Shown: piece by piece, positions 10,836 to 46,638 of the stretch | Layout: the number at the start of each line of letters is the position of its first letter | Position numbering within the stretch: position 1 is the stretch's first letter | Source of the DNA: Methanobacteriota archaeon | GTDB taxonomy: Archaea; Thermoplasmatota; Poseidoniia; Poseidoniales; Thalassarchaeaceae | NCBI GenBank assembly: GCA_014239955.1 | Contig: JAAZXW010000011.1 | Span: 1-64,000 of the forward strand | DNA length: 64,000 nt | Direction of reading: 5' to 3' | Program-made: the position numbers and the translations under genes | The notes under the pieces: generated by a model | Seen by the model: the letters and a program-made list of their open reading frames with translations, nothing else | Told to the model about the DNA's origin: nothing | Databases searched by the model: none

Positions 10836-11108
10836 ATGTCACACATACCCGGAACCGGACACTCAAACAACGCTAGAAGTCTAGTAAAGACTGTGACATG
10901 GAGAACAATTGGGACGATGGATACCATAATTATCTCATATTTAATCACTGGAAGCATAGCAATGGGGGCAGCCATCGGGGGGACCGAGCTATTCACTAAG
11001 ATGTTCCTCTATTACCTCCATGAGAGGGGCTGGAGTAGAATCGACTGGGGGCTAGAGGATATTGATTCGATAGAAACCTCAGCCATTCCGGTTACTGCTT
11101 CCCCATAG
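10836..11108 (+). CDS. Small membrane protein, DUF2061-like; paralog 1
   Basis: Shared pattern KT.TWR.IGT.DT..ISYLITG...YYLHERGW.RIDWG. Confidence 0.5.
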   Translation: MSHIPGTGHSNNARSLVKTVTWRTIGTMDTIIISYLITGSIAMGAAIGGTELFTKMFLYYLHERGWSRIDWGLEDIDSIETSAIPVTASP

Positions 11109-11155: not shown

Positions 11156-11401
11156 ATGTTAGGCCCGGGCGAAGATATGGCGATGGGTATGTACACTAGG
11201 GAACGCGTTCTGGCAAAGACATTTGTCTGGAGAATGATTGCAACTTTGACAGGTGCGGCAATAGCTGCGATTCTGAGTGGTGAGCTAGAAACAGCTGGCT
11301 GGTTCATAATCATCGAGTTCCCACTAAAGATGGGATTCTACTACGTCCACGAGAGAGCCTGGGAATCAATCGAGTGGGGGGTCGCCGAACCCTCGGTATG
11401 A
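11156..11401 (+). CDS. Small membrane protein, DUF2061-like; paralog 2
   Basis: KTFVWRMIATLTG...YYVHERAWESIEWG; about 40% identical to the upstream paralog over the conserved core. Confidence 0.5.
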   Translation: MLGPGEDMAMGMYTRERVLAKTFVWRMIATLTGAAIAAILSGELETAGWFIIIEFPLKMGFYYVHERAWESIEWGVAEPSV

Positions 11402-11403
11402 TC

Positions 11404-14130
11404 CTATTCGCGGATGAACCAGTGTTCCTTCCTTGGTGGCAGAGGCCTCTTCATCCATAATGGCCTCCTTTCTCCACGAGGATGGACCTCTTTCTCCTTG
11501 GCCATCTCGTTCCATCTCTTGTAGTACTCAAACGACTTATTCGTATCGACCTCAACGTCCCCGTACTTCTCTCCTTCCACTGGTCTTGATATTCTCACCT
11601 TCTGAAGCCAGCAATGCGCACCGCTGATTGGGTCTGGCTGTACGGCATGAGTGATGTTCTGGTGCACCCCTCCATCCCTCCACCACACCCTGTTGGTATC
11701 CGGGTCGTCGGACTCCCATGGCCTGACTCCGGTGACCGTCCTCATCCGCATCCTGCCTTCTCCCAGGTCCTCTATCTCGACTTCGTTGGTCATGTATCTG
11801 TTGCCCGAGTCCTGTTTCCTTCGCCATCTCCCTATGTGGTGCGAGCATCCGATAATCCCCGGCTTAATCCCCTCAGTCACCCAGACCTTGTCGATGAACC
11901 AGCCTATCTCGGTCTCCACTTTGAGCAAGTCCCCCTCCCCAACCCCTAGCTTAGCAGCATCAGTGGGATGGACCCAAAGGGGGTTTCGGTGGGCTATCTC
12001 TGCCAGCCATTTGGCATTGGCAGAGCGTGAGTGGATGTGCTGGGGGAGTCGGAAGTTGGGTAGGAGGCAGTACTCGTCCTCTCCCTGTAGGTTGTCCGGA
12101 TGCACGTGGCTCATGACTCTGTAATGCGGGATGGAGTGCTCGGGGTATCCGAACTCTACCATGCTGTTTGAGTAAAGCTCCTGCTTCCCACTGGGCGTCG
12201 GCCATCCGTCTTCCTCGTGCTTATTGTAGGTGGCCTCCTCGATCAGGAAAGCACCGTGCTTCCTCATGTACCCAAGTGGATCCGTCCCTTCGGCCTCTGC
12301 TGCTTCTGGGAGTCCGGGAATCCTTTCGAACATGTACTGGTAGTATTCGTCGATGGTGATTCTCTCCCCCTCACGATACGGACTCATGAAGTGCTCGCGA
12401 ATCCCCATAGTCCCGTCGTCAATCCTCCATGACAACTCGTTCCAGAACTCGTCCTCCTCCCACACCTCTCCGGGATTTACCTCGTGCGTGAACTCGACCT
12501 CTTTCCCCTCCCTGCGTGCATACTCTCTCAGAACCGGTTGTCTGAACGCTACCCACTTGCCCGAGCTTGTCGCGTATGAGTTGACGTCGTGCCTCTCTGA
12601 GGCATGACCCATAGGGAGGACGTAGTCGGCGAAGAAAGCCGTCTCGTTCCAAGTAGGGGTTAGAGCCACGTGGCATCCAACCGACTCCTTGTTCTGCAGC
12701 ATCTCGATCCAAGAGAACCCATCCGGGTAGGTCCAAACTGGATTGAAAACCCTTGTGAAGTAAACGTCCATAGAGCCCCTGCCGTCCTTGACCAGGTGAG
12801 GTAGGATGTGACTCATCTCGTAGTGGGACAGGGTGTACTCAGGAGGGAAGTGCAACTCGTTCCATCCATCTGGGTCCGGAGGGTCGTCGAACAGGTCCGG
12901 CTTGTACTTCGACCACGAGTTGGGTGAAGTCCCGCCCTCGGTCCCGACGCTCCCTGTCAGGACGTTAAGCAGATGCAGGGTCCTGCTGACTTGCCAGCCA
13001 CCGAGATTACCTATGGCGGCAGCCCTCCAAACATGTGTCGCTAGCTTGCTTCCTGAGTTTGCTACGATTTCTCCGACCTCTATGACTTGCTCAATGGGGA
13101 TCCTGCACTCCTTCGCAGCGAACTCGGGCGTGTACTGTGCGTACTCTTCTCTTAGTAGTTCGATGAAGCGGTCGAACTCCAGTGGCTCTCCCGGATGATC
13201 GGCCTCCAACCACTCCTCCCAGTTCACCCAGTTCTCAACGAAGTCCCTGTCGAACAGGCCTCGTTCCAGAATCATGCTCGCCCATGAGAGGAAAAGGGCA
13301 GATTCGGATCCGGGCCAAGTCGGTAGCCAATGATCTGCCATCGCCGCTGTGTTGGAGAGCCTTGGGTCAATTACGATGAGCTTAGCACCATCCATCATTC
13401 CCTCGAGAATCCTCTGTGCATGTGGGTTGAAGTAGTGACCCGTCTCCAAATGGGAGGAAGTTAGTAAGATCACCTTGGCGTTGGCGTGATCGGGTGATGG
13501 CCTATCGTGACGATGCCAGAGTGAGTAGCCGGTCCTTGCTCCTGCGGAGCATATGTTTGTGTGGCTATTGTGGCCATCCACCCCCCATGCCTTCAGAATC
13601 CTGTTGGTGTACCCCTCGTGCCCAGGGCGTCCGACGTGATACACCACTCTGTCCTTGGCCCCTGTCTTCAGGGATTCACGAATCTTTGTGGAGATCTCGT
13701 CCAATGCCACTTCCCAGGAAATCCTCTCCCAACCTCCCTCTCCCCTGGGGCCCACCCTCCTCATTGGGTGGAGTATCCTCTCCGTGTCATTGATCTGGTT
13801 AATTGTGGCAGGGCCCTTGGCACAGTTCCTCCCCCTGCTCCCAGGGTGATGGGGGTTCCCTTCGAACTTCGATACCTTCCCCGAGTCCTTGTCGACATAG
13901 GCGAGAAGGCCACAGGCCGACTCGCAGTTGAAGCAGGTCGTCGGAATCAGTGAGTACCGTTTCTCGATCATCTTTGGCCACTCATTGGCATCAAGCTCCA
14001 CGTGATCGTGCCACTCATTCGGTTCGGGGAAAGCCCTCAGTGGGCCATTCGCCCCCTCAGCATCTCGTCTGTCCAGATTGGGAATTATTCGAAGGCGCTG
14101 TGCCACTTTCTCGATGAACGTCTTTCCCAA
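11404..14130 (-). CDS. Molybdopterin (Mo-bisPGD) oxidoreductase catalytic subunit, polysulfide/thiosulfate/tetrathionate-reductase-like; no Tat signal
   Basis: N-terminal [4Fe-4S] motif CFNCESACGLL...NPHHPGSRGRNCAKG; 908 aa; no S/T-RRxFLK motif in the first 40 residues. Confidence 0.7.
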   Translation of the reverse strand: MGKTFIEKVAQRLRIIPNLDRRDAEGANGPLRAFPEPNEWHDHVELDANEWPKMIEKRYSLIPTTCFNCESACGLLAYVDKDSGKVSKFEGNPHHPGSRGRNCAKGPATINQINDTERILHPMRRVGPRGEGGWERISWEVALDEISTKIRESLKTGAKDRVVYHVGRPGHEGYTNRILKAWGVDGHNSHTNICSAGARTGYSLWHRHDRPSPDHANAKVILLTSSHLETGHYFNPHAQRILEGMMDGAKLIVIDPRLSNTAAMADHWLPTWPGSESALFLSWASMILERGLFDRDFVENWVNWEEWLEADHPGEPLEFDRFIELLREEYAQYTPEFAAKECRIPIEQVIEVGEIVANSGSKLATHVWRAAAIGNLGGWQVSRTLHLLNVLTGSVGTEGGTSPNSWSKYKPDLFDDPPDPDGWNELHFPPEYTLSHYEMSHILPHLVKDGRGSMDVYFTRVFNPVWTYPDGFSWIEMLQNKESVGCHVALTPTWNETAFFADYVLPMGHASERHDVNSYATSSGKWVAFRQPVLREYARREGKEVEFTHEVNPGEVWEEDEFWNELSWRIDDGTMGIREHFMSPYREGERITIDEYYQYMFERIPGLPEAAEAEGTDPLGYMRKHGAFLIEEATYNKHEEDGWPTPSGKQELYSNSMVEFGYPEHSIPHYRVMSHVHPDNLQGEDEYCLLPNFRLPQHIHSRSANAKWLAEIAHRNPLWVHPTDAAKLGVGEGDLLKVETEIGWFIDKVWVTEGIKPGIIGCSHHIGRWRRKQDSGNRYMTNEVEIEDLGEGRMRMRTVTGVRPWESDDPDTNRVWWRDGGVHQNITHAVQPDPISGAHCWLQKVRISRPVEGEKYGDVEVDTNKSFEYYKRWNEMAKEKEVHPRGERRPLWMKRPLPPRKEHWFIRE

Positions 14131-14139
14131 CCTATCACC

Positions 14140-15579
14140 TCACAACAACGGCTCCATCTGCGGCCTCACGACCAAGTGATTGTCATGGGCAAGAATCCCT
14201 AACAGAACCACTCCACCTACTATGAAGGAGAGCGGTTCCATCAATACAAGGGGGAAGAAAACTGCAGCCCCTATGGCCACGGTCTCGACTAGGAACTTCG
14301 CAGGCAGTAGGGAATCTTCTGACCAAGATCTGCCCTTTGCCTGCATCAAGAGCCAAGCCGTGTACACCCCAGTGAGTAAGGCCAGGGGCAATCCAGCAAT
14401 TGCCAGGTACGAAAGAAATGTCCGATCAAGGTCCAGTATTATCACTGCCACACTTAGGGCTAACACTCCACCATATCCAGAGAGGATGTACGCCCCCCTG
14501 ACTAGCCAAGAGTCCCAATTAGGACGAAGCATCACGTAGAGGAACCTCTCTGGTCTGTCAAGATCAATAACAAGGAGCAATCCAGTAAGTGCGAGGAAAA
14601 CTACCCCAATTGCCAGGGTCATCGCCCACAGTCCATCACTCATCTCAACCAGTCCAGAAAGCATTGCTAGTACTGCTACTACATATGTTCCTGCTGCTAT
14701 CCCCTTTGTCCAGATGTAAGCTGACACTTCCCAACCCCACAGGACTCCCTTGCTCGGCTGATCGTAACTCCTCTTGGCCTCGCCTGTTTCGTTCGCTAGC
14801 CTATCCATCACATCTCTGATGATTGCCTGGTCTCTAGGGGCGGACTGCTTCGCCTTCTTCTCCAGAGCCAGTTGCACAATCATAGATTTGGTATCGGCAC
14901 CACCCAGTCGACTCTCTGCGTACTTTGCAAAGTGCCCGACGCCGAAGGCCTGCTCTGTCCACATGCCAGCCCCCGTCACATCTGTAGCGGATGGGTCAAG
15001 CATCTCCTCGCTAGCATCAATGTAGTACAAGTTGGGAACCGCACCTGACTGGGGCTTCCTCACCGTTGTTTCGTGGGAAGCTACAAGATTGGAAATTGCC
15101 GAGTTGGGGTCATCCAGGTCTCCTGAGACTATGGATTCCGTTGGGCAAACGATTACGCAGGCAGGTTCGTAGGAGTGCTCGATCCTGTGAGCGCAATAGT
15201 TGCACTTAGCAGCAGTTCCCTTGTTGGGGTCGATGTACAGGGCGTCGTAAGGGCACGCTTGCATGCACGACTTGCATCCTATGCACCTCTCATCATCGAA
15301 ATCGACTATCCCATCAGACCTCGTGAATAGCGCTGTAGTAGGGCAGATTGTAGTACATGGGGAATCCTCGCAATGGTTGCACCGATGGACGCTGAATTCT
15401 CTGGTGGAGTCCGGATATGTCCCCTTCTCGATGTACTTGACATGGGTCCTGTTTACCCCGATTGGGATATCGTGCTCTGACTTGCAGGCTACGGTGCAAG
15501 CGTGGCAGCCGATACAAGTCTTGTTGTTTATCACGAATCCGTAGTTCGTCACTATTGCTGCGACAAGGCTTCGACGCAA
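14140..15579 (-). CDS. Four-cluster ferredoxin (PsrB/DmsB-like) fused to a truncated NrfD/PsrC-like membrane anchor
   Basis: Four Cys motifs (CIGCHACTVAC, CNHCEDSPCTTICP, CIGCKSCMQACP, CNYCAH...CVIVCP); C-terminal about 200 aa contains WGWEVSAYIWTKGIAAG and DLDRPERFLYVMLRPNWDSWLVRGAYIL, which are NrfD-family signatures. Confidence 0.7.
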   Translation of the reverse strand: MRRSLVAAIVTNYGFVINNKTCIGCHACTVACKSEHDIPIGVNRTHVKYIEKGTYPDSTREFSVHRCNHCEDSPCTTICPTTALFTRSDGIVDFDDERCIGCKSCMQACPYDALYIDPNKGTAAKCNYCAHRIEHSYEPACVIVCPTESIVSGDLDDPNSAISNLVASHETTVRKPQSGAVPNLYYIDASEEMLDPSATDVTGAGMWTEQAFGVGHFAKYAESRLGGADTKSMIVQLALEKKAKQSAPRDQAIIRDVMDRLANETGEAKRSYDQPSKGVLWGWEVSAYIWTKGIAAGTYVVAVLAMLSGLVEMSDGLWAMTLAIGVVFLALTGLLLVIDLDRPERFLYVMLRPNWDSWLVRGAYILSGYGGVLALSVAVIILDLDRTFLSYLAIAGLPLALLTGVYTAWLLMQAKGRSWSEDSLLPAKFLVETVAIGAAVFFPLVLMEPLSFIVGGVVLLGILAHDNHLVVRPQMEPLL

Positions 15580-15591
15580 AATGGTTCTGTG

Positions 15592-16758
15592 TCACCCAAG
15601 GAGAATTCCCAGGATGGCTCCCCCAGCTAGCCATGCACCCGCCATTGAACCGAGATTCCCTAGGAACGTGACCATCAGCACCCTACCGACACGATTTTTC
15701 CAGAAAAGAGACACCTCGTCAAGGACCAGGAAGTCCTTTGCGTCCTTCCCTGTCGGTGAGGCCACCTTCAGCTGCGTGTATCCAGCGAACCATCCAGCTG
15801 CAAGTGTGGGATTGAGGGATGTGATTGGCGATGCAATAGCACCTACTAGTATGGAGAGCGGGTGACCCCTTGCAATGAGGACTCCAATTCCGGCTAGGAG
15901 GGCATTGAGTAGGAGCCAAGTCTGAGCCGTCTGCTTTAGAGCCCCCATCTCGCCATTTGCAACCATCCAAGCCACAGCACCAAAGAGGAATATTGGGATT
16001 GCCGCCATCAGCAGTCTCGGCCAAATTGACTTGATGGGTTCCTTGCTAAGTTCTGCCAGTCTTGACGTCGTTTCCATCGCAGGCTCCCTCAGATTGTGTA
16101 CAACTCCACTAATGTGACCTGCACCGATAACGGCCAGCACCTTGCCCTTTCCTCGAATCTGCTGTATCCTTCCCGCTAGGAATGAATCTCGCTCGTCAAT
16201 CAGGACCTCTCCTGCCCCGGGGGCAATTTCTCTGGCATCTTCCATCATGCTACTGAGGAGATCCGAGTCTCCAAGCATCTCGTCTATGGACAACTCATCA
16301 TCATCCTCTTCCCATAGGAGGGCGTTCAGTATTCTCCATTTCTCGATAATTCCCATCTTCCTCCACGCTCTCCTGAGTGTGACAACGACGTCCCTGTCGA
16401 TCATTTCCACCGGAACCCCCGAATCCTCAGCAGCATTTACCGCAGCCAGGAGCTCGGCTCCAGGTTTCTCTCCCGATGAAACCCCCATCCTCCTCTGCTG
16501 CGCTGCAAGTGCAGATTGGAGGAGAATCATTGCCGACCTTCCTTCTTTGATTATTTTCAGAAGGTCTTCAGAATCTAGAGAGTCTGGTTTTGTCAATGCT
16601 GCCATTCTCGACGGGCAGAGTTCCACTGCCACCAAATCCGGCCCCCATTCTTCGATTTGATTGCGCACTAGCTCCACCGATTCGCTACTGACGTGGGCCG
16701 TTCCCAAAAGCCTCAGATTCTCATCTATCTCGATGATGTTCTTGCTCCCCTCGGACAT
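15592..16758 (-). CDS. TraB/PrgY family protein
   Basis: LLGTAHVSSESVELVRNQIEEWGPDLVAVELCPSRM and AVIGAGHISGV match TraB-family motifs; C-terminal TM helices. Confidence 0.55.
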   Translation of the reverse strand: MSEGSKNIIEIDENLRLLGTAHVSSESVELVRNQIEEWGPDLVAVELCPSRMAALTKPDSLDSEDLLKIIKEGRSAMILLQSALAAQQRRMGVSSGEKPGAELLAAVNAAEDSGVPVEMIDRDVVVTLRRAWRKMGIIEKWRILNALLWEEDDDELSIDEMLGDSDLLSSMMEDAREIAPGAGEVLIDERDSFLAGRIQQIRGKGKVLAVIGAGHISGVVHNLREPAMETTSRLAELSKEPIKSIWPRLLMAAIPIFLFGAVAWMVANGEMGALKQTAQTWLLLNALLAGIGVLIARGHPLSILVGAIASPITSLNPTLAAGWFAGYTQLKVASPTGKDAKDFLVLDEVSLFWKNRVGRVLMVTFLGNLGSMAGAWLAGGAILGILLG

Positions 16759-16762
16759 CTTC

Positions 16763-17596
16763 TCATCTCACCGCCTTCATCGCTGCGAAAGTATCCGAAT
16801 GTTCTGTGACGTCATGGACTCTGACAATGTCTACTTCTTTCTGCAAGGACATTGCAGCAATTCCCAGCGAACCAGCTAGTCTGTCATCACTCATCTCACG
16901 ACCGAGGAGGTCCCGAAACATGCTCTTCCTGCTAACCCCCCACATTAGTCCCATTTGACTATCTGGCACTATCTCCCTCCCCGAAGATAGCAGAGCCAGA
17001 TTGTTTTCCAGATTCTTCCCGAAGCCTATACCCGGGTCAACAACTATTCGAGAGGGCATAACTCCTGCTTCTATTAGGCGGCTTGTGGCTCCGTCTAAGT
17101 ATGATCTGACCTCATTCACTACGTCCTCATAATGGGGGTCGTCTTGCATGTTCTCAGGGAGTCCTTGCATGTGCATCAAGCAAACTGGACATCCGTGCTC
17201 GACTACCACATCTAGCATCTCAGGGTCGCTCATTGAAGAGACATCATTCACCATATCAGCTCCGATTTCCAGAGCCCGACGCGCAACCTCGGCCCTTCGC
17301 GTGTCCACAGATATACACACATCCGGAAGCTCAGCCCTGATGCCCTCTATCGCTGGAACAACTCTGTCTAACTCGTCTACGACCGACACTGGCTTCGCCC
17401 CTGGTCTTGTCGACTCACCTCCGACGTCAATCCATTCTGCGCCATCTGCAGCCATACTAGATGCCGTGGCTATTGCTTGATTCTTGTTTGCCGACCTAGA
17501 ATCGGGATGGAACGAGTCCGGAGTGATGTTAACAACCCCCATGACCCTAGGAAATCCATCATCTCGGCGATTTATCATAGGTCGCCAGTCGGCCAT
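16763..17596 (-). CDS. folP: Dihydropteroate synthase
   Basis: VMGVVNITPDSF and WIDVGGESTRPGA are DHPS pterin-binding motifs. Confidence 0.8.
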   Translation of the reverse strand: MADWRPMINRRDDGFPRVMGVVNITPDSFHPDSRSANKNQAIATASSMAADGAEWIDVGGESTRPGAKPVSVVDELDRVVPAIEGIRAELPDVCISVDTRRAEVARRALEIGADMVNDVSSMSDPEMLDVVVEHGCPVCLMHMQGLPENMQDDPHYEDVVNEVRSYLDGATSRLIEAGVMPSRIVVDPGIGFGKNLENNLALLSSGREIVPDSQMGLMWGVSRKSMFRDLLGREMSDDRLAGSLGIAAMSLQKEVDIVRVHDVTEHSDTFAAMKAVR

Positions 17597-39945: not shown

Positions 39946-40607
39946 TCAACAGGTCCCAATGGCACTCTTCCAAGATTCTCCTCGCAAGTCAGGATTAGGC
40001 TCTTCTCCATCCTATCGACGTCTAGGGGCTGGCCTTCGTTGTCGTTCACATAACCCAGTTGTGAAAGGCTAGTATGCGTACCAGCTTCAATGCCGCAGAA
40101 CTCCAATCCTTCAACCCTGTTTTCAGGTGTGTCTATGTTGATGGATATCCCATGGCGACTAACCCAGTGTAGGAAAGAGAGCCCGATCGAGCAAATCTTG
40201 TGACCATCAACCCAGGCACCCTGCATCGCTTCGTCCTTGTAAGCTGAAATCCCGCATTCCAATAGGGCTGCTATCACCCAGTCTTCTAGCCTCCCGATAA
40301 TCCCTCTGATGCTCTGTTCCTCAATATCCCATTTCACAATTGGATATGCGACAAGCTGCCCAGGGCCATGCCAAGTAATGCCCCCTCCCCTGTCTGTGGG
40401 TGAAGTCGGATACCCTTCCACGATGACGTTGTCACGGACCGCCTTGGGTCCAATTGTCACTACTTCTGGGTGTTGGACAAATATCAGAGTGTCACTAATG
40501 TCGCCCGCTATCCTCTTCTTTTGTAGGTCCTTCATAGTCTGGGCCATTACGCGATAATCAACTACTCCGCATCTTAGAACGTTTATTCCGTCAATTCGAT
40601 CACTCAA
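39921..40607 (-). CDS. lipB: Octanoyl/lipoyl transferase (LipB-like)
   Basis: RGGGITWHGPGQLVAYPIV (LipB RGG..T.HGPGQ motif) and HKICSIGL (the K-I-x-x-x-G acyl-enzyme lysine region). Confidence 0.65.
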   Translation of the reverse strand: MSDRIDGINVLRCGVVDYRVMAQTMKDLQKKRIAGDISDTLIFVQHPEVVTIGPKAVRDNVIVEGYPTSPTDRGGGITWHGPGQLVAYPIVKWDIEEQSIRGIIGRLEDWVIAALLECGISAYKDEAMQGAWVDGHKICSIGLSFLHWVSRHGISINIDTPENRVEGLEFCGIEAGTHTSLSQLGYVNDNEGQPLDVDRMEKSLILTCEENLGRVPLGPVDWRPEILV

Positions 40608-42040
40608 CTGATGTGGATGGCATGTCCAAGGGTCTTGAGTACGCTCTCATGGAATGCCTCGGACATCGTGGGATGGGCATGAACCGTTCCAGCCACGTCC
40701 TCCAGAAGTGCTCCCATTTCGAGCGCCAATACGAATTCTGAGTGAAGCTCGGCTACATGGCTTCCTACAGCTTGAACTCCAAGAATTACGTGATCAGATT
40801 CCCTTGCCGTGACTCGAATGAAACCCCCGGTTTTTTCTGCCTCTAGGCTCAATGCCCTACCATTAGCCGCAAGTGGGAACTTGCCAACTATTACCTCCTC
40901 GCCCCTTTCCTTCGCTTCATCTGGGGTGAGGCCGACTGAAACGATCTCAGGCTCAGTGAAGACAATCGCGGGAATGGCAACTTTGTCGAATTCACGCTTG
41001 TGCCCGGCAATAATCTCTGCTACCATCTCCCCCTCTGCACTAGCCTTGTGGGCCAGCATAGGCTCACCTGAGACGTCACCAATGGCAAACACCCCGGGAA
41101 CCGATGTTCTGCATTGCCTGTCCGTTCTGATGAAACGCCCCGAGCCATCCATCCTTACTCCGGTGTTTTCTAGTCCCCATCCCTTGGTATTGGGCTTCCT
41201 CCCCACTGTGACTAGGACTTTGTCCACCTTCACCTTGTGCTCCAAGCCTTCTTTCTCAAAGGTCAACTCAACCTTTCTTGATGCACCCTTGCCCTTGACT
41301 TCTGCACCCCTTGCCAGGGAGTCTGTATGGATCGTCACCTTGTGTTTCTTTAGCCACATTTCCAACGGCCTCCTGATTTCTTTGTCCATTATTGCCAATA
41401 CGTTGCTCAAACCCTCAACGACAGTTACTTCAGCTCCAAGTTTTGCAAGTGCGCAACCCAACTCGAGGCCAATATAGCCCCCTCCAACAATTGCCACGCT
41501 CTTTGGTAGCGTATCCAGGTCCAATGCCCCAGTCGAGGAGAGCACGAACTCTTCGTCACATGGCATGAATGGCAAGTCTATGTGGCTTGAACCAGTGGCG
41601 ATTATGACATTCTCTGCTTCTATCTTTACCTTGTCACCATCATTGTCTACGGTGCAACTCTTGGGGCCATCAAAACTGGCCCACCCTTTGATCAAATTCG
41701 CTCCAGCAGCTTTCAGAAGACCCTCGACACCCTTGTTCAGCCTATCCACAATGGAATCCTTCCAAGACACCAGTGCACCCATGTCGACCTCCGCCTCGCC
41801 ACTCACGGTTAGGCCCATGTGGCCCCCCTCTGCAGAATGCTGGCGTAGAGATTCGAACCTCTCTGCAGCGTGTATGATCGCCTTGCTAGGTATACACCCC
41901 CTAATCAGGCATGTCCCACCCGCTTTGTCACCCTCAACTACAATTGTATCTAGGCCTAGTTGCGCTGACCTGATTCCCGCTACGTAGCCACCCGGGCCAG
42001 CCCCAACTACCAAGACTTGGCACTTGCGTGATTCAGCCAT
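40604..42040 (-). CDS. lpdA: Dihydrolipoyl dehydrogenase (E3)
   Basis: GAGPGGYVAGIRSAQLG (FAD), redox disulfide GTCLIRGCIPSK, NAD site, and interface-domain His. Confidence 0.9.
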   Translation of the reverse strand: MAESRKCQVLVVGAGPGGYVAGIRSAQLGLDTIVVEGDKAGGTCLIRGCIPSKAIIHAAERFESLRQHSAEGGHMGLTVSGEAEVDMGALVSWKDSIVDRLNKGVEGLLKAAGANLIKGWASFDGPKSCTVDNDGDKVKIEAENVIIATGSSHIDLPFMPCDEEFVLSSTGALDLDTLPKSVAIVGGGYIGLELGCALAKLGAEVTVVEGLSNVLAIMDKEIRRPLEMWLKKHKVTIHTDSLARGAEVKGKGASRKVELTFEKEGLEHKVKVDKVLVTVGRKPNTKGWGLENTGVRMDGSGRFIRTDRQCRTSVPGVFAIGDVSGEPMLAHKASAEGEMVAEIIAGHKREFDKVAIPAIVFTEPEIVSVGLTPDEAKERGEEVIVGKFPLAANGRALSLEAEKTGGFIRVTARESDHVILGVQAVGSHVAELHSEFVLALEMGALLEDVAGTVHAHPTMSEAFHESVLKTLGHAIHIS

Positions 42041-42049
42041 TTTAGCCCC

Positions 42050-43276
42050 TCACATGAAAATGAGTGCTGGTGTTTCCAGCATTCTCTTGAGGTCCTGTAT
42101 TAGAGATGCACCGTCCGCACCATCGACCACTCTGTGGTCAAAGGCACTTGATAGATTCATGATTCTCCGAACTACTATCTCCCCATTTCTGACAACGGGC
42201 ATCTCTCTCGCCTTGTGGACACCTAGGATGGCAACCTCTGGGTGGTTGATGATTGGTGTTGCTCCCAAGCCACCTTCGCGTCCCAGACTTGTTATCGTGA
42301 AAGTGGAACCAGTTAACTCGTCCAGGCTTGCGCTTCCATTTTTTGCAGATCCAGATACTCTCTGCATTTCTAATGCAGTGCTCCAGATATCCATGGACTC
42401 GACGTGCTTCACCACTGGGACATACAGGCCCCGTTCTGTCTGAGTAGCAATTCCTAGGTTCACTGCTCCCTGCCTGTTCACCACTCCCCCTTCGTCATCG
42501 AAGTGGGCATTACATTCGGGATGATCTGGCATGATCTTTGCAAGAGTCAGCATGATGAATGGGAGATAAGTCAACTTCGGCTGAGTTTCGTCCTTTGTTG
42601 TATTCAGAACCCGCCTCAACGACTCTAATTCGGTAATATCCACTTCTTCGAAATATGAGAAGTGAGGTATTCTACTCTTAGAGAGGCTCATTTGCTCTGA
42701 TATTTTCCTCATCAGTCCGACAACTTTCACCGGCGTCACTTCGGTTCTTTTCACTGAGTAGGCCATTGGCGGAGCCCCAGAAATTGCACCTCCTGCAGCA
42801 ATGAAGGCATCCAAATCAGCGTGCCTAACTCTTCCAGCGGGGCCCGAGCCTCTAACGTTGGATAGATCAACATCATTTTCCCTAGCACGCTTCCTTACTG
42901 CAGGACTCGCAAGGACTCGTCCGATGTCAGCTTTCATCGACGCCACAGGGACTGGAGTTTCTGGGGCTGGAGTCGGAGCTGTAGGCTCGATTTCCTCTTC
43001 TGCACTCTTTTCTTCCTCCTCGGGTACTTCTCCTCCCTCGGAGTCAATCTCTAGGAGAGTTTTCCCCACAGCAATCATGTCCCCAACCCCTCCGCTGAGT
43101 GAACTGATTACTCCACTGGTTGGAGAAGGTATGGTGACTGTTGCCTTATCCGTCATAACATCCACAAGAGGGTCATCCTCGGATACTGATTCTCCAACCG
43201 AAACGTGCCATTGGACTACTTCTCCTTCTACTACCCCCTCTCCGATGTCAGGCAACTTAAACACGAATTTTCCCAT
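42050..43276 (-). CDS. Dihydrolipoamide acyltransferase (E2) of a 2-oxoacid dehydrogenase complex
   Basis: Lipoyl domain (DIGEGVVEGEVVQW...VMTDKATV); Pro/Glu/Ala linker; catalytic DHRVVDGA. Confidence 0.85.
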   Translation of the reverse strand: MGKFVFKLPDIGEGVVEGEVVQWHVSVGESVSEDDPLVDVMTDKATVTIPSPTSGVISSLSGGVGDMIAVGKTLLEIDSEGGEVPEEEEKSAEEEIEPTAPTPAPETPVPVASMKADIGRVLASPAVRKRARENDVDLSNVRGSGPAGRVRHADLDAFIAAGGAISGAPPMAYSVKRTEVTPVKVVGLMRKISEQMSLSKSRIPHFSYFEEVDITELESLRRVLNTTKDETQPKLTYLPFIMLTLAKIMPDHPECNAHFDDEGGVVNRQGAVNLGIATQTERGLYVPVVKHVESMDIWSTALEMQRVSGSAKNGSASLDELTGSTFTITSLGREGGLGATPIINHPEVAILGVHKAREMPVVRNGEIVVRRIMNLSSAFDHRVVDGADGASLIQDLKRMLETPALIFM

Positions 43277-43277
43277 T

Positions 43278-44297
43278 CTAATCCTCCTGTGTTTTTGCTA
43301 TTGCCGCCGCGATTCTAGATGGTCCGGGCATGTAATCCCATTCAGTAGTATGGGGGAACGGAGTGTCCCAACCGGCAACCCTCTCAATGGGGGCCTCAAG
43401 GTGATAGAAGCACCTCTCTTGGATGGAAGCTGCCATTTCCGCACCGAATCCACTAGTCTTCGGGGCTTCGTGGACGATCACGCACCTTCCTGTCTTCTCA
43501 ATGGAACTTACAACTGCATCTCTGTCCCATGGCACTAGGGTCTGCATGTCTATCAGATCGCATGAGACGCTGCTGTCCTTGATTGCTTGTTCACAAACAT
43601 GGACCATGGCACCCCATGAAATTACCGTGCAATCATCCCCTTGTTTCGCTAATCTTGCTTGCCCAAGCGGGATTTTATAGTGACTCTCGGGAACTTCTGC
43701 CTCCGGGTGATCTGACCAAGTGGGTACGTTGTGGGGGTCTCCGTAGAAAGGCCCCCTATAGCATCTCTTGGGTTCGAAGAAAACAACTGGATCGTTGCAC
43801 TCAACTGCACTAATTAGCAACCCTTTGGCATTGTAAGGTGTCGAGCAGTAAACAACTTTCAGCCCGGGTGTGTGTGTGAATTGAGACTCGGGGGATTGTG
43901 AATGGTGGTGCCCCCCTCTGATCCCACCACCAGCCGGGGTTCGAAGGGTGACTGGTGACCAAAACTCGCCACCAGACCTATGCCTAACTTTGGCCATCTC
44001 ATTTACAATCTGGTCATAAGCAGGGAAGATGTAGTCGGCGAACTGAATTTCCACTATAGGCCTGAGGCCATTAAGGCCCATCCCAAATGCAGTTGCTGCA
44101 ATTCCGCCTTCCGACAAGGGGGAGTCGAAAACACGATGTTCACCATGCTTCTCTTGTAACCCATCAGTCGTCCTGAAGACTCCCCCGAAGTATCCAACGT
44201 CCTCTCCAAATACGATGACATCAGAGTCATTCTCAAGCAAGTTATCAAGCGCACTATTTAGGGATTGAATCATATTCATGTTGGTCATTTCAACCAC
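43278..44297 (-). CDS. 2-oxoacid dehydrogenase E1 component, beta subunit
   Basis: Transketolase-like pyrimidine-binding and C-terminal domains. Confidence 0.8.
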   Translation of the reverse strand: MVEMTNMNMIQSLNSALDNLLENDSDVIVFGEDVGYFGGVFRTTDGLQEKHGEHRVFDSPLSEGGIAATAFGMGLNGLRPIVEIQFADYIFPAYDQIVNEMAKVRHRSGGEFWSPVTLRTPAGGGIRGGHHHSQSPESQFTHTPGLKVVYCSTPYNAKGLLISAVECNDPVVFFEPKRCYRGPFYGDPHNVPTWSDHPEAEVPESHYKIPLGQARLAKQGDDCTVISWGAMVHVCEQAIKDSSVSCDLIDMQTLVPWDRDAVVSSIEKTGRCVIVHEAPKTSGFGAEMAASIQERCFYHLEAPIERVAGWDTPFPHTTEWDYMPGPSRIAAAIAKTQED

Positions 44298-45525
44298 CCA
44301 TTAGTTCGTCATGCTGTTCTTTCAGATGCCATGGCATCTCTTCGTAAACCTCGGTGAAAATTGTATCGGCCGAGGGGTATGGGCCATTGGCCAGATCACC
44401 GAATTTGACGGCTTCCTTGTAAGCATCCACTACCTCGGTATCGATCCTTTCCTCCATTTCTTTGTGTCTATCCTCGCTCCACTCTCCCAAATTAATCAGG
44501 TGTTCTTTCAGCCTAGTTATCGGATCCCCGCCTGGCCATTTCGTATGTTCGTCCTTTGGCCTGTATCTGCTGGGATCGTCACTGCTACTGTGCGCTCCCG
44601 TTCTGTAAGTCAGAACCTCAATGTGGGTCGCCCCGGATCCCGAAGATGCCCTTTCGCGTGCCCATTTGGTTACTGAATAGAGTGCTAGGAAGTCATTCCC
44701 ATCAACTCTAATCGATGCAAGCCCGTAGGGAATTCCCCTGCATGCGAAGTTATCCATTCCTGTGGCGAAGTTAGCATGTGTCGAAATTGCCCACTGATTG
44801 TTTACCACATTGAGAATTACCGGTGCTTTGAATACACTTGCGAAGTTTAACGCATAGTGGTAATCTCCTTCAGCGCTCGCACCATCTCCGATCCACGTGA
44901 TGGTCACTTCGTCCAGTCCCTTGTAACTTGACGCGAGACCTACGCCAACCGCCTGGCTGAATTGTGTTCCAACAGGGCTAGAAATCGAAATAAATCTGCC
45001 CTCTCGATATGAATAGTGTACTGGCATTTGCCTCCCCTTGATGTTGTCCTCTATGTTTCCAATGCAGTGACAAATCATGCTAACCATCCCCCTCCCTCTG
45101 ACGAATTGCGCCCCTGGTTGCCTGTATGTCGGGAATATCCAATCCTGTTCTTCCAATGCCATAGTTTGCGCAATCGCCACTGCCTCCTCGCCTAACGACC
45201 TCATGTAGAATGAAAGCAAACCTGTCCGTTGCATCTTCATCATCCTGTCATCGAATATCCTCAACCTCGCCATGTGCTCTAGCCCGGTTCGGAGTTGATC
45301 TGCAGAGAGTCCGGGATCCCATTCTCCAGAGGCATTACCATCGTCATCGAGCACCCTTACTAGCCCGTTTGCTAGGTCTACAGTGTCCTCGGATCGACAA
45401 TTCTTTGGATCGGGCTTCGGCAAGTCACCAGGTTTCCACGGCCAGTCCTCGAAGCTCGCTTGCTCCCCGGGCCTGAAAGGCGCATCGGGGACGTGGATTT
45501 TTCCATCATTGCCCTTAGACCCCAC
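44290..45525 (-). CDS. 2-oxoacid dehydrogenase E1 component, alpha subunit (TPP-binding)
   Basis: TPP motif GDGASAEGDYHYALNFA; 8-nt overlap with the beta subunit. Confidence 0.8.
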   Translation of the reverse strand: MGSKGNDGKIHVPDAPFRPGEQASFEDWPWKPGDLPKPDPKNCRSEDTVDLANGLVRVLDDDGNASGEWDPGLSADQLRTGLEHMARLRIFDDRMMKMQRTGLLSFYMRSLGEEAVAIAQTMALEEQDWIFPTYRQPGAQFVRGRGMVSMICHCIGNIEDNIKGRQMPVHYSYREGRFISISSPVGTQFSQAVGVGLASSYKGLDEVTITWIGDGASAEGDYHYALNFASVFKAPVILNVVNNQWAISTHANFATGMDNFACRGIPYGLASIRVDGNDFLALYSVTKWARERASSGSGATHIEVLTYRTGAHSSSDDPSRYRPKDEHTKWPGGDPITRLKEHLINLGEWSEDRHKEMEERIDTEVVDAYKEAVKFGDLANGPYPSADTIFTEVYEEMPWHLKEQHDELMGG

Positions 45526-45543
45526 GATGATTTCCTCCTGTAA

Positions 45544-46638
45544 TCATGAATTATCAACCTCTGCTGCAACCAATCTCTCCGATGACAGGATGCGACTAAC
45601 TGCCGAACCAGTCGAGTCACGAGTAACCACTGGTTCGCCCCCGATTGCCTCTTCCCATAGTAGACCTGCCCTATAGCTCGATCTAACTAGGGGTCCGCTA
45701 GCCACTGCACTGAAACCTAGTTCCCTAGCGAAGCTATCCCAATCTGCAAATCTATCTGGCTCCGGAAACCTATCTACTGGGAGGTGTCTGAAGCTAGGTT
45801 GTAGATACTGCCCTAGTGTAATCATGTCCACTCCGGCCCCACGAATCATTTCCATTGCCTCTATGATCTCTTCATCTGTTTCTCCCAAACCAACCATCAG
45901 ACTAGTCTTTGTAAGCAGGTCAGGACGAATTTCCTTTGCCGTTCTCAGAATCTCAAGTGACTGAACAAATGAAGCTCTGTGATCCCGAACAACAATGTCT
46001 AGTCGAGGGACACATTCGACATTGTGTGCAAATACTCTCAGAGGTAATCCATCCAACAGTGCATCCAGGGCCTCGAGATTTCCGTCTAAATCTGAACAAA
46101 GTAGCTCCAATCCGACGTTTGGATTATTCTTCGCAACTTCTATGATACAATCTCTGTAGTGAATCGCCCCGCCGTCTGGTAGGTCATCTCTGTTCACTAC
46201 CGTGATTACTGCATAGCTAAGGCCCATTTTGGATACTGCATCAGCTAACTCACGAGGCTCTTCAGGATTGAGTTTCGAAGGGGTCCTAACAGTTCCGACT
46301 GCACAGAATCTGCACCCTCTGGTGCAGACTTCTCCCGCAATCATGAAGGTCGCCGTACCCCTGCCCCAACAGTCGTGAACATTTGGGCACCTTGCCTCTT
46401 CGCAGACAGTATTCAACCCGTGAGCCAACACATTCTCCTTTGTTTCGTTGTACCTCGACTGAGCTAGACCCGTTGGAAGAGACGTCTTGAACCAAGAAGG
46501 GAGACGCTTCCTCATTTTTTTCCTCTTATTTAGAGGGCTAATTGTAGTCGCACTTCCACAACCTCCAGACACCTCTGTTTCAGAGTCGATGATTGGCAAC
46601 CGCCTCTCCATCGTAATCAACGGATAGAAGAACGACAT
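45544..46638 (-). CDS. lipA: Lipoyl synthase (radical SAM)
   Basis: CEEARCPNVHDCW (auxiliary cluster) and CTRGCRFCAV (radical-SAM CxxxCxxC). Confidence 0.9.
   Translation of the reverse strand: MSFFYPLITMERRLPIIDSETEVSGGCGSATTISPLNKRKKMRKRLPSWFKTSLPTGLAQSRYNETKENVLAHGLNTVCEEARCPNVHDCWGRGTATFMIAGEVCTRGCRFCAVGTVRTPSKLNPEEPRELADAVSKMGLSYAVITVVNRDDLPDGGAIHYRDCIIEVAKNNPNVGLELLCSDLDGNLEALDALLDGLPLRVFAHNVECVPRLDIVVRDHRASFVQSLEILRTAKEIRPDLLTKTSLMVGLGETDEEIIEAMEMIRGAGVDMITLGQYLQPSFRHLPVDRFPEPDRFADWDSFARELGFSAVASGPLVRSSYRAGLLWEEAIGGEPVVTRDSTGSAVSRILSSERLVAAEVDNS

Follow-up and report, generated by a model that had tools for sequence, protein, structure and literature searches.

The two adjacent genes described here belong to an archaeon of the Poseidoniales (Marine Group II). 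Together they encode a complex iron-sulfur molybdoenzyme of two polypeptides that, by analogy with the Soe and PSRLC3 systems, appears on balance to oxidise cytoplasmic sulfite to sulfate with a quinone as electron acceptor. Sulfite is proposed as the substrate because of the sulfur genes that surround close orthologues of the pair and the likeness to PSRLC3 and SoeABC. An earlier note had held that the sequence alone does not reveal the substrate; this is correct, but the orthologue neighbourhoods make sulfite a reasonable inference. Both open reading frames named in that note are present at the positions given there in the window (the whole analysed stretch of 64,000 nt), and chance is excluded as their source because each of the two proteins has thousands of homologues in the databases. 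The features are as follows.

11404..14130, minus strand: catalytic subunit, a Mo/W-bisPGD enzyme of the Psr/Phs/Arr structural group (908 aa, Pfam domain triad)
11407..11583, minus strand: family-specific C-terminal extension past the usual Psr-type end (approximately residues 850-908, 'YGDVEVD...RRPLWMKRPLPP')
13534..13563, minus strand: active-site motif H190-T-N-I-C194-S-A-G-A-R199, with C194 as predicted Mo ligand from the alignment to PsrA
13822..13935, minus strand: FeS0 [4Fe-4S] binding motif C66-x2-C69-x3-C73-x29-C103, invariant in 82/82 orthologues
14140..15552, minus strand: ferredoxin-NrfD fusion (470 aa from the GTG at 15552; maximal ORF from a TTG at 15579)
14143..14766, minus strand: NrfD/PsrC-type membrane domain with six helices (Pfam NrfD, AF2, Foldseek)
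14767..14982, minus strand: partly helical cytoplasmic linker from the ferredoxin to the membrane domain (residues 191-262, AF2)
14983..15552, minus strand: four-cluster [4Fe-4S] ferredoxin domain of the PsrB/NrfC/TtrB type (residues 1-190 of 470, match to PsrB 2vpw_B)

The catalytic gene starts with a TTG codon preceded by GGTGAT, and its product carries the Pfam domains Molybdop_Fe4S4 (62-114), Molybdopterin (118-519) and Molydop_binding (692-778). The N-terminal FeS0 motif claimed in the earlier note was found at C66, C69, C73 and C103, and in the sequence alignment C194 takes the place of Cys173, which binds Mo in Thermus PsrA. These five cysteines are invariant across 82 full-length orthologues, and the surrounding motif HTN[IV]CS[AS]GAR is essentially so. 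Judged by these residues, the subunit is a Cys-ligated Mo-bisPGD enzyme with an intact FeS0 site. Some more distant relatives from a representative search have lost FeS0 cysteines (in P0125) or the ligand Cys (in P0124 and P0128), as would befit a redox-inactive, cofactor-less scaffold that serves only as a quinone-interacting module, like ActB (alternative complex III) or QrcB. Because the window protein and all close orthologues retain these residues, and because MobA, the molybdenum cofactor guanylyltransferase, is a recurrent neighbour of the latter, such a scaffold is barely conceivable here.

The solved structures most similar in sequence to the catalytic subunit are those of PsrA (2vpw_A, 1.5e-35), acetylene hydratase and ArrA, and a Foldseek search with the AF2 model (pLDDT 74.6, pTM 0.77) returned ArrA at the top and PsrA, with a TM-score of 0.74 normalised to the target. 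No equivalog model of NCBIfam fits; the best model, PhsA, reaches 190.7 bits against a cut-off of 694, and dmsA_ynfE 181.9 bits against 777.7. Homologues carry generic database names only (JGI and NCBI pipelines), not SoeA. The C-terminal extension is kept in Tat-less and Tat-bearing relatives alike. Among characterised enzymes, the polysulfide/thiosulfate reductases and arsenate reductase are the nearest in sequence, an observation that speaks against sulfite.

The fusion gene precedes the catalytic gene, as had been noted. Its translation almost certainly begins with the GTG at 15552 and not with the TTG at 15579, because homologues open with M[TVA]NYGFVI; this start drops the N-terminal 'MRRSL', the sole Tat-like element. 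The ferredoxin domain begins at residue 3, and 16 cysteines, all invariant across 30 homologues, form four cluster motifs. PsrB (2vpw_B) is the best solved sequence match of this domain (1.3e-47) and ArrB its structural match in Foldseek, and the NCBIfam models TtrB, NrfC and DsrO score about 160 bits each, all below their cut-offs. Pfam assigns Fer4_11 and NrfD (E = 2.2e-18, 67.4 bits, profile positions 6-195 of 313) to the protein, and PsrC (2vpw_C) is the only clear structural match of the anchor (probability 1.0, 193 aligned columns of 250). The proposed fusion of a four-cluster ferredoxin to an NrfD-family domain thus holds. The linker between them, with low-confidence AF2 helices at 207-255, has a mean pairwise identity of 69% within Poseidoniales versus 34% among bacteria. 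Six AF2 helices follow (273-298, 306-330, 349-372, 378-405, 416-437 and 440-466; helix pLDDT > 90), and helices 1-4 carry conserved cytoplasmic-side motifs, namely WGW and DLDRPERF, both already recognised in the earlier note, RPNWxSWLV and YTAxLxxQAKGR.

The earlier note had also predicted a cytoplasm-facing active site from the lack of a twin-arginine signal. We assessed this by a motif and hydropathy test and added a positive-inside test of our own. The catalytic subunit has no segment of transmembrane-level hydropathy; the 65 residues ahead of FeS0 reach a maximum of 0.52 (12-residue window), and its sole RR, in 'DRRDAEG', is followed by acidic residues. Neither an RR-x-hydrophobic motif nor a hydrophobic stretch ahead of FeS0 was found in the 82 full-length orthologues, and by motif and hydropathy neither window protein has a Tat or other signal. 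The ferredoxin-side loops of the anchors carry 4-10 K+R residues (6 in the window protein) versus 0-1 on the far side, and this bias is reversed in the Tat-dependent Azoarcus NrfD (2 vs 4). Because export signals are absent and the K+R bias points to the ferredoxin-side loops, the hydrophilic parts of the complex are predicted to lie on the cytoplasmic face of the membrane, in agreement with the note.

The description of the anchor as a truncated one with six helices was right, but it is not the N-terminal half of an NrfD protein: compared with the eight-helix orthologues, six of eight helices are kept, helices 7-8 are deleted internally and the conserved C-terminal tail 'RPQMEPLL' is retained. 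Helices 7-8 are missing from all Poseidoniales copies of the fusion, and every orthologous fusion examined outside this order has eight helices. The leftover helices 5-6 evolve fast in Poseidoniales anchors. This loss seems to have no earlier report. It leaves the second helix bundle, the proposed ion path, incomplete, so that the Poseidoniales enzyme probably just reduces quinone in a non-electrogenic way and does not translocate ions.

Full-length orthologues (about 52-70% identity) occur in Marinimicrobia, Bacteroidota, Planctomycetota, Rhodococcus jostii, Thermomicrobium roseum and haloarchaea, and the partner is the same fusion in every case with upstream DNA present. Those of Marinimicrobia share 65-70% identity with the window protein and form its sister group in an NJ tree; the Poseidoniales pair was probably acquired from bacteria, with helices 7-8 lost afterwards.

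The gene neighbourhoods of 62 bacterial and 22 Poseidoniales loci, together with the Natrinema, R. jostii and T. roseum clusters, feature rhodanese-MBL (persulfide-dioxygenase-like), DsrE2 (215.6 bits, cut-off 210), TusA, SQR-like, YeeE, SulP/DASS, TauE/SafE and ArsR genes. Rhodanese-MBL, a weak match to the Blh dioxygenase model, lies at most four genes from the pair in 24 of the 62 bacterial loci and immediately upstream in three of the 22 Poseidoniales loci (L014, L016, L017). A SulP sulfate permease is present in 19 bacterial loci and an SQR-like gene in six, and a TauE/SafE sulfite exporter directly follows the catalytic gene in 6/22 Poseidoniales loci and shares the cluster of the Natrinema pair. 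R. jostii RHA1 combines DsrE, TusA, the fusion, the catalytic gene and Mrp in a single cluster flanked by MBL genes and ArsR, and in T. roseum a CsoR-type regulator stands immediately upstream. None of the sulfur genes occurs in the 64,000 nt of the window, and 13 of the 22 Poseidoniales loci have none nearby. Taken together, these neighbourhoods indicate cytoplasmic sulfite:quinone oxidation rather than DMSO or polysulfide respiration. Since R. jostii and T. roseum are aerobes, an anaerobic reductase becomes less likely. Sulfite would arise in the cell, e.g. via persulfide dioxygenase or the breakdown of organosulfur compounds, and be turned into sulfate at the Cys194-ligated Mo-bisPGD centre, from where two electrons may move via FeS0 and then the four ferredoxin-domain clusters.

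TusA, DsrE2 and rhodanese, carriers of sulfane sulfur, equally fit a substrate that carries such sulfur, which also counts against sulfite. A cytoplasm-facing polysulfide, persulfide or thiosulfate oxidoreductase of the Psr/Phs kind, which would either reduce the sulfane sulfur delivered by these proteins at the expense of quinol or supply the quinone pool by oxidation of sulfide or persulfide, is unlikely. It would agree with the Cys ligand shared with PsrA and with PsrA, PsrB and PhsA as best solved relatives and best model, although the PhsA score is well under its cut-off. The occurrence of the enzyme in the aerobic genera Rhodococcus and Thermomicrobium and in surface-ocean Poseidoniales argues against this reading, the neighbouring SulP, DASS and TauE/SafE genes suggest a link to sulfur oxyanions, and the SQR-like enzyme could already handle sulfide oxidation where it is encoded. 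Wright et al. (2014, PMC3906813) originally gave this Psr/Phs-like reading to the genes of Marinimicrobia and Marine Group II, whereas the green-sulfur-bacterial counterpart was reread as a sulfite oxidase in later literature.

A cytoplasmic oxidoreductase for another small substrate (another sulfur oxyanion such as tetrathionate, or arsenite or selenite), next to which the sulfur genes would serve regulation or detoxification only, is suggested by ArrA as top structural match, by the lack of a fitting equivalog model and by the family-specific N- and C-terminal extensions of the clade. We consider it improbable, as the neighbouring genes point consistently, in different phyla, and specifically to the handling of persulfide, sulfite and sulfate, and arsenic or selenium genes do not recur beside the pair in the loci examined.

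Ecological papers have read a Marine Group II cluster of a molybdopterin oxidoreductase, a 4Fe-4S ferredoxin and TraB as a hint of DMSO respiration (PMC6741140, citing Martin-Cuadrado 2008). An anaerobic respiratory DMSO/TMAO-type reductase is, however, very improbable: the match to dmsA_ynfE stays well under the cut-off, TraB is not a constant neighbour and the gene context of the orthologues is one of sulfur oxidation. Moreover, the Tat signal is absent, the anchor is of the NrfD and not the DmsC type, and the Mo ligand is Cys here and Ser in DmsA. A DMSO/TMAO reductase is contradicted on three defining features.

Escherichia coli DmsABC shares the superfamily and the three-module logic with the window enzyme but differs in the Ser ligand and Tat signal of DmsA and in the anchor family of DmsC. 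Thermus thermophilus PsrABC (PDB 2VPW-2VPZ) has the same Cys ligand and is the best solved sequence match for catalytic subunit and ferredoxin domain (by fold, PsrA comes just behind ArrA), at about 20% identity in structure-based alignments. However, PsrAB is exported by Tat to the periplasm and the eight-helix PsrC has its two termini on the P side, whereas the window complex is inverted, fused and shortened. The earlier note was right that the pair departs from canonical psrABC, but the combination is not new: Wright et al. (2014, PMC3906813) had already published Tat-less PsrA-like proteins, psrBC fusions and the order psrBCA from fosmids of Marinimicrobia and Marine Group II. In those clusters, likewise of two genes, the FeS-anchor fusion comes first and a Tat-less, Psr/Phs-like catalytic subunit second; the Marinimicrobia fusions examined have eight helices and about 536 aa, those of Poseidoniales six helices and 470-485 aa. 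In the published tree, on which the tie of the window clade to green sulfur bacteria rests, Marine Group II homologues cluster with fused, Tat-less PsrA homologues of these bacteria (PMC3906813), whose complex was later named PSRLC3, a two-gene system with inferred sulfite oxidation (PMC5473276, PMC6338057, PMC9324843). SoeABC, described from purple and green sulfur bacteria (PMC8232776), is likewise a membrane-bound Mo-bisPGD enzyme (Allochromatium vinosum, Aquifex aeolicus), whose FeS subunit has four clusters and whose anchor lacks cofactors. It is also Tat-less, with its hydrophilic part on the cytoplasmic (N) side of an inverted anchor (PMC8076601), and has a proposed tie to sulfite generated in the cytoplasm. 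Unlike the window pair, with B and C fused, the order BC-A and six helices, it has three separate subunits in the order soeA-soeB-soeC and an eight-helix SoeC. Since catalogued SoeC is confined to Proteobacteria, Clostridia and Aquificae (PMC8076601), the window clade is at best a separate Soe-like lineage, in which the Poseidoniales pair would do the job that SoeABC and the two-gene PSRLC3 of green sulfur bacteria are proposed to do.

The two proteins considered here are encoded on the minus strand by closely packed open reading frames, the fusion gene upstream and the catalytic gene downstream:

11404-14130, minus strand: catalytic subunit of 908 aa with the Pfam domains Molybdop_Fe4S4, Molybdopterin and Molydop_binding
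14140-15579, minus strand: maximal open reading frame of the ferredoxin-NrfD fusion (470 aa from the GTG at 15552, placed by homologue starts)

The catalytic subunit belongs to the Mo/W-bisPGD (DMSO reductase) superfamily, as an earlier note made from the sequence had claimed. All three Pfam domains exceed their gathering thresholds, and the CX2CX3CXnC motif of the N-terminal [4Fe-4S] cluster (FeS0) is present as C66, C69, C73 and C103, invariant in 82 of 82 orthologues. The AF2 model (pLDDT 74.6, pTM 0.77) has its best fold matches in ArrA, PsrA and acetylene hydratase (target-normalised TM-scores 0.74-0.76). The Mo ligand, which the note had left to be identified, is a cysteine: in a phmmer alignment to Thermus thermophilus PsrA, C194 (motif HTNICSAGAR) falls on Cys173, the Mo ligand of PsrA. 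The canonical ligand position is thus filled, and C194 is invariant across the 82 orthologues. No curated equivalog model fits the protein, the top one being PhsA with 190.7 bits against a cut-off of 694. A cofactor-less pseudo-molybdoenzyme of the ActB/QrcB type is very unlikely because all ligands are conserved; the QrcB model reaches 77 bits against a cut-off of 440. The representative search also returned remoter Tat-less relatives with 40-43% identity, of which P0124 and P0128 have lost the Cys ligand motif and P0125, a protein of 1220 aa with a long low-complexity insert, the FeS0 cysteines. These three may be paralogues that have degenerated and lost their cofactor, much as in ActB and QrcB. 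Several further matches of that search, from high-GC organisms, are frameshifted translations.

The true start of the fusion is almost certainly the GTG at 15552, because its homologues begin with M[TVA]NYGFVI. A Tat-like element at the start of the maximal reading frame, MRRSLVAAIV, was rejected: the homologues begin nine codons later, and residue 12 of the maximal frame already aligns with residue 3 of PsrB, which leaves no space for a signal peptide. The protein consists of a four-cluster ferredoxin, a linker of about 70 residues and a membrane domain of the NrfD family, the architecture that had been read from the sequence. The ferredoxin part is a four-cluster subunit of the PsrB/NrfC/DmsB type, with 16 invariant cysteines in four motifs for four [4Fe-4S] clusters and a PsrB match at 1.3e-47; its AF2 model was poor (pLDDT <50) and was left out of structural inference. 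When PDB sequences were searched with a profile of the NrfD domain, no match appeared even at E = 10, and the anchor was then tied to PsrC through Pfam and fold. Pfam NrfD matches the C-terminal domain with E = 2.2e-18 (67.4 bits against a gathering threshold of 25.8; profile positions 6-195 of 313), and Foldseek aligns it to 193 of the 250 residues of PsrC (2vpw_C) with probability 1.0 and a target-normalised TM-score of 0.53.

A Tat signal is absent and the ferredoxin side is cytoplasmic, for which motif, hydrophobicity and charge bias make a strong although not formal case, in agreement with the cytoplasm-facing active site expected before. The 65 residues that precede FeS0 contain neither a hydrophobic stretch nor a twin-arginine followed by hydrophobic residues, and the ferredoxin domain starts at the very N-terminus of the fusion. 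Tat-like features (an RR-hydrophobic motif or a hydrophobic N-terminal region) were found in 0 of 82 full-length orthologues, which share all five key cysteines without exception. Read with the ferredoxin side inside, the membrane domain follows the positive-inside rule: the loops carrying the WGW, DLDRPERF and QAKGR motifs hold 4-10 Lys and Arg residues (6 in the window protein), the opposite loops 0-1, and in a Tat-dependent Azoarcus relative the bias is reversed (2 vs 4). Assignment to PsrA/PhsA at the equivalog level was rejected, since PhsA scores below its cut-off, no Tat signal is present and the ferredoxin side is placed in the cytoplasm. In ecological papers the pair was taken to indicate anaerobic respiration of DMSO or polysulfide, and in work on Marine Group II the cluster is mentioned only as a hint of DMSO respiration (PMC6741140). 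The DmsA/YnfE subfamily heads the models that score next after PhsA, followed by type II DMSO reductases, Fdh, ArrA and TtrA. A DMSO reductase (DmsABC) is a very improbable assignment, given the Cys ligand, the missing Tat signal, the NrfD-type anchor and a dmsA_ynfE score of 181.9 bits against a cut-off of 777.7.

The AF2 model of the membrane domain has six helices (pLDDT >90), and with the charge bias this gives the topology of the fusion as six helices with the ferredoxin side inside. NrfD proteins have 8-10 helices, arranged as two four-helix bundles of which the first contains the quinone site, and the second bundle is taken in reviews of the family as part of an ion-conducting path (PMC8076601). 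The present anchor thus conforms to the NrfD/PsrC family in Pfam match and fold, but not in helix number. Eight helices are found in all aligned fusions from outside Poseidoniales, namely those of Marinimicrobia (536 aa), Saprospiraceae (about 541 aa), Rhodococcus jostii (506 aa), Thermomicrobium roseum (510 aa) and Natrinema (591 aa). All Poseidoniales copies (470-485 aa) lack a block of about 65-70 residues with helices 7-8, and every one keeps the conserved C-terminal R-PQ-x-PL tail. Because the block is gone and the tail retained, the loss is a clade-specific internal deletion; the anchor is shortened to about six helices, as the earlier note had it, but is not the N-terminal half that the note took it for. 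In the literature examined we found no report of this loss in Poseidoniales. Helices 5-6 (14143-14319, minus strand) show a mean identity of 30.7% within Poseidoniales against 64.6% for helices 1-4, and in the far more diverse bacterial set the values are 42.4% and 56.1%. These identity figures suggest that constraint on the remnant of the second bundle is relaxed in Poseidoniales. Helix 5 is scarcely hydrophobic at the loci L010, L015 and L017.

Both proteins have thousands of homologues each in marine metagenomes; the named ones are assigned to Thermoplasmatota, Poseidoniales or Ca. Thalassarchaeum with generic function names from the source pipelines, and the cluster names of the nearest representatives hold no functional information. 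With at least 22 Poseidoniales species representatives carrying it (full-length orthologues of about 72-96% identity in the species-representative genome scan), the pair is common in Marine Group II. Among the matches listed in that scan, orthologues of 65-68% identity come from Neomarinimicrobiota and those of 58-61% from Saprospiraceae and other Bacteroidota, Pirellulaceae and other Planctomycetota, KSB1, Pyrinomonadaceae and one deltaproteobacterium. A tblastn search against plasmids gave cultured hosts at 52-55%: Rhodococcus jostii RHA1 (pRHL3), Thermomicrobium roseum DSM 5159, Natrinema, Halomarina and Halomicrococcus. The same ferredoxin-NrfD fusion lies directly upstream of the catalytic gene in 75 of the 84 loci, and in most of the other nine the contig ends first. 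In a quick distance tree of the catalytic subunits (neighbour-joining) the Tat-less proteins form a tight clade with Poseidoniales sister to Marinimicrobia and nested among bacteria, and with haloarchaea elsewhere; P0127 and P0186, Tat-bearing proteins of about 1100 aa, fall outside, as do typical Psr-like proteins with a Tat signal. Because of this nesting, horizontal acquisition of the pair by Poseidoniales would fit the tree. Two relatives of 29-36% identity, on Azoarcus sp. KH32C pAZKH (L087) and a Sulfurovum mangrovi plasmid (L090), have separate FeS and NrfD genes in anchor-first order, followed by genes for a TorD-family chaperone and a second 4Fe-4S protein. Since a clear Tat signal is present on the catalytic subunit from Azoarcus, the anchor-first order preceded the loss of export.

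The window contains no sulfur-oxidation genes, and the neighbours of the pair there are housekeeping genes. Its further features are:

10836-11108 and 11156-11401, plus strand: two tandem small DUF2061 membrane proteins convergent with the catalytic gene (2 nt between the stop codons)
15592-16758, minus strand: TraB-family gene (TIGR00261, 293 bits) upstream of the fusion gene
16763-17596, minus strand: dihydropteroate-synthase-like gene (Pterin_bind in the orthologue) upstream of the fusion gene
40604-46638, minus strand: 2-oxoacid dehydrogenase operon with E1, E2 with lipoyl domain, and E3 dihydrolipoamide dehydrogenase
48086-51022, plus strand: 978-aa open reading frame with zero Pfam matches, before the next
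51099-60062, plus strand: 2987-aa open reading frame with a transglutaminase-like core (residues 951-1039) as the sole clear domain and a faint MG2 match

The dihydropteroate-synthase-like, TraB-family and fusion genes are closely packed (gaps of 4 and 39 nt) and may be co-transcribed. Marine Group IIb contigs keep the order folP-like, traB, fusion, catalytic gene, two convergent DUF2061 genes, thiolase and flotillin. TraB as a functional partner, implied in PMC6741140, was rejected: the synteny on this side holds in 13 of 22 Poseidoniales loci and is thus not constant, it is broken in L011, L013 and L019, where traB lies on the other side and strand, and the gene is missing from the bacterial loci. 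A DUF2061 gene adjoins the pair in 14 of 22 Poseidoniales loci vs 0 of 62 bacterial loci, an adjacency that falls in the same lineage that lost anchor helices 7-8, and the adjacent DUF2061 proteins may have a functional role. The idea that these two two-helix proteins supply helices 7-8 in trans was rejected (hhalign probability 0.1%, no hmmsearch match, opposite strand).

The neighbourhoods of the orthologues are more informative about the substrate. At a distance of up to four genes from the pair, a rhodanese-MBL-fold gene (persulfide-dioxygenase-like) occurs in 24 of 62 bacterial loci and a SulP sulfate permease in 19; fewer loci have DsrE2 (above the NCBIfam cut-off), a type III SQR-like gene, YeeE/YedE, a DASS sulfate symporter, ArsR or MobA. 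In R. jostii the cluster runs DsrE, TusA, fusion, catalytic gene, Mrp, with three MBL genes and ArsR regulators on its flanks. A CsoR-type regulator lies immediately upstream of the pair in T. roseum, and the Natrinema locus combines rhodanese-MBL and a TauE/SafE sulfite exporter with the pair, Mrp and MobA. Within Poseidoniales the rhodanese-MBL gene lies immediately upstream of the pair in L014, L016 and L017, and a TauE/SafE gene (Pfam 2.1e-22) immediately after the catalytic gene in six other loci; neither linkage was found reported for Poseidoniales in the literature examined. The rhodanese-MBL protein might, tentatively, be a persulfide dioxygenase. In L085 (R. jostii RHA1 pRHL3) and L088 (Natrinema caseinilyticum plasmid) the gene right after the catalytic gene encodes an Mrp/NBP35-family ATPase, for which no counterpart was found in Poseidoniales or Marinimicrobia loci; this ATPase may serve enzymes of this class as a dedicated maturation factor for Fe-S clusters or cofactor.

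Persulfide dioxygenases form sulfite, TauE/SafE exports sulfite, and SulP and DASS transport sulfate. Judging by the gene context of its orthologues, we think with moderate confidence that the pair most likely performs cytoplasmic sulfite:quinone oxidation of the Soe/PSRLC3 type. The main alternative is that the substrate is persulfide, polysulfide or thiosulfate, for which the sulfane-sulfur carriers among the neighbour genes speak. Oxidation of sulfite to sulfate with a quinone acceptor is favoured because the neighbour genes, the cytoplasmic orientation and the orthologue hosts, among which we presume aerobes, point to it together. The earlier statement that the substrate cannot be inferred thus applies to the window, whose housekeeping neighbours give no clue, but no longer to the family, since the orthologue neighbourhoods favour sulfite.

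During sulfite oxidation Mo-bisPGD would hand electrons to FeS0 and then to the four clusters, and these would reduce quinone at a site within helices 1-4, close to the cytoplasmic face. Because half of the second bundle is gone, no ion translocation would be expected in the Poseidoniales enzyme, and energy would be conserved downstream in the respiratory chain. That the six-helix anchor, with this loss, still serves a minimal non-electrogenic cytoplasm-facing sulfite:quinone oxidoreductase is a tentative prediction about which we are rather doubtful. If such an enzyme works, neither anchoring nor quinone reduction needs the second bundle; by losing two helices, the clade provides a small natural experiment on the purpose of that bundle in NrfD proteins. 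Marine Group II is among the most abundant surface-ocean microbes. Should the sulfite reading be true, the most abundant surface-ocean archaea would oxidise organosulfur-derived sulfite to sulfate for respiratory electrons, which would tie Marine Group II to organic sulfur turnover, and the pair would not be a relic of anaerobic DMSO or polysulfide respiration. Its scoring in metagenomic sulfur-cycle surveys, for which pipelines now give generic names, would also change. The interest lies in reading a very abundant gene pair of marine archaea anew and in its six-helix anchor, not in a new kind of system.

The system is of a known kind and already described in Marine Group II. Wright et al. 2014 reported, on Marinimicrobia fosmids, Tat-less PsrA-like proteins, psrA preceded by psrB and psrC, and fusion of psrB with psrC, noted the same features in green sulfur bacteria, Haladaptatus and Caldilinea, with Marine Group II proteins as closest relatives, and in the published tree Marine Group II fosmid homologues group with green-sulfur-bacterial catalytic subunits (PMC3906813). 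Fusion, lack of a Tat signal and FeS-anchor-first order, which the earlier note set against canonical complexes, are all present here but, because of that description, not new. The green-sulfur-bacterial two-gene complex, PSRLC3, is an inferred sulfite oxidase (PMC5473276, PMC6338057, PMC9324843). SoeABC is the accepted case of a cytoplasm-facing complex iron-sulfur molybdoenzyme with inverted anchor (PMC8076601), and a review quoting Dahl et al. 2013 gives its genes as universal in purple and green sulfur bacteria (PMC8232776). No characterised SoeA was among the matches in the plasmid collection; as SoeA candidates, the Azoarcus KH32C match, a Tat-bearing FeS-NrfD-Mo-TorD cluster, and the Thioclava match, an unrelated Mo enzyme with an FAD partner, were rejected. 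The putative kinship of the window enzyme with SoeABC is drawn from the literature, and its tie to PSRLC3 from the published tree. With PSRLC3 and psrBC-psrA it shares the two-gene arrangement, a fused FeS-anchor followed by the catalytic subunit, both Tat-less. With SoeABC it shares cytoplasmic hydrophilic subunits without a Tat signal; SoeABC, however, consists of three separate subunits in the order soeA-soeB-soeC, whereas in the window enzyme B and C are fused and the order is BC-A.
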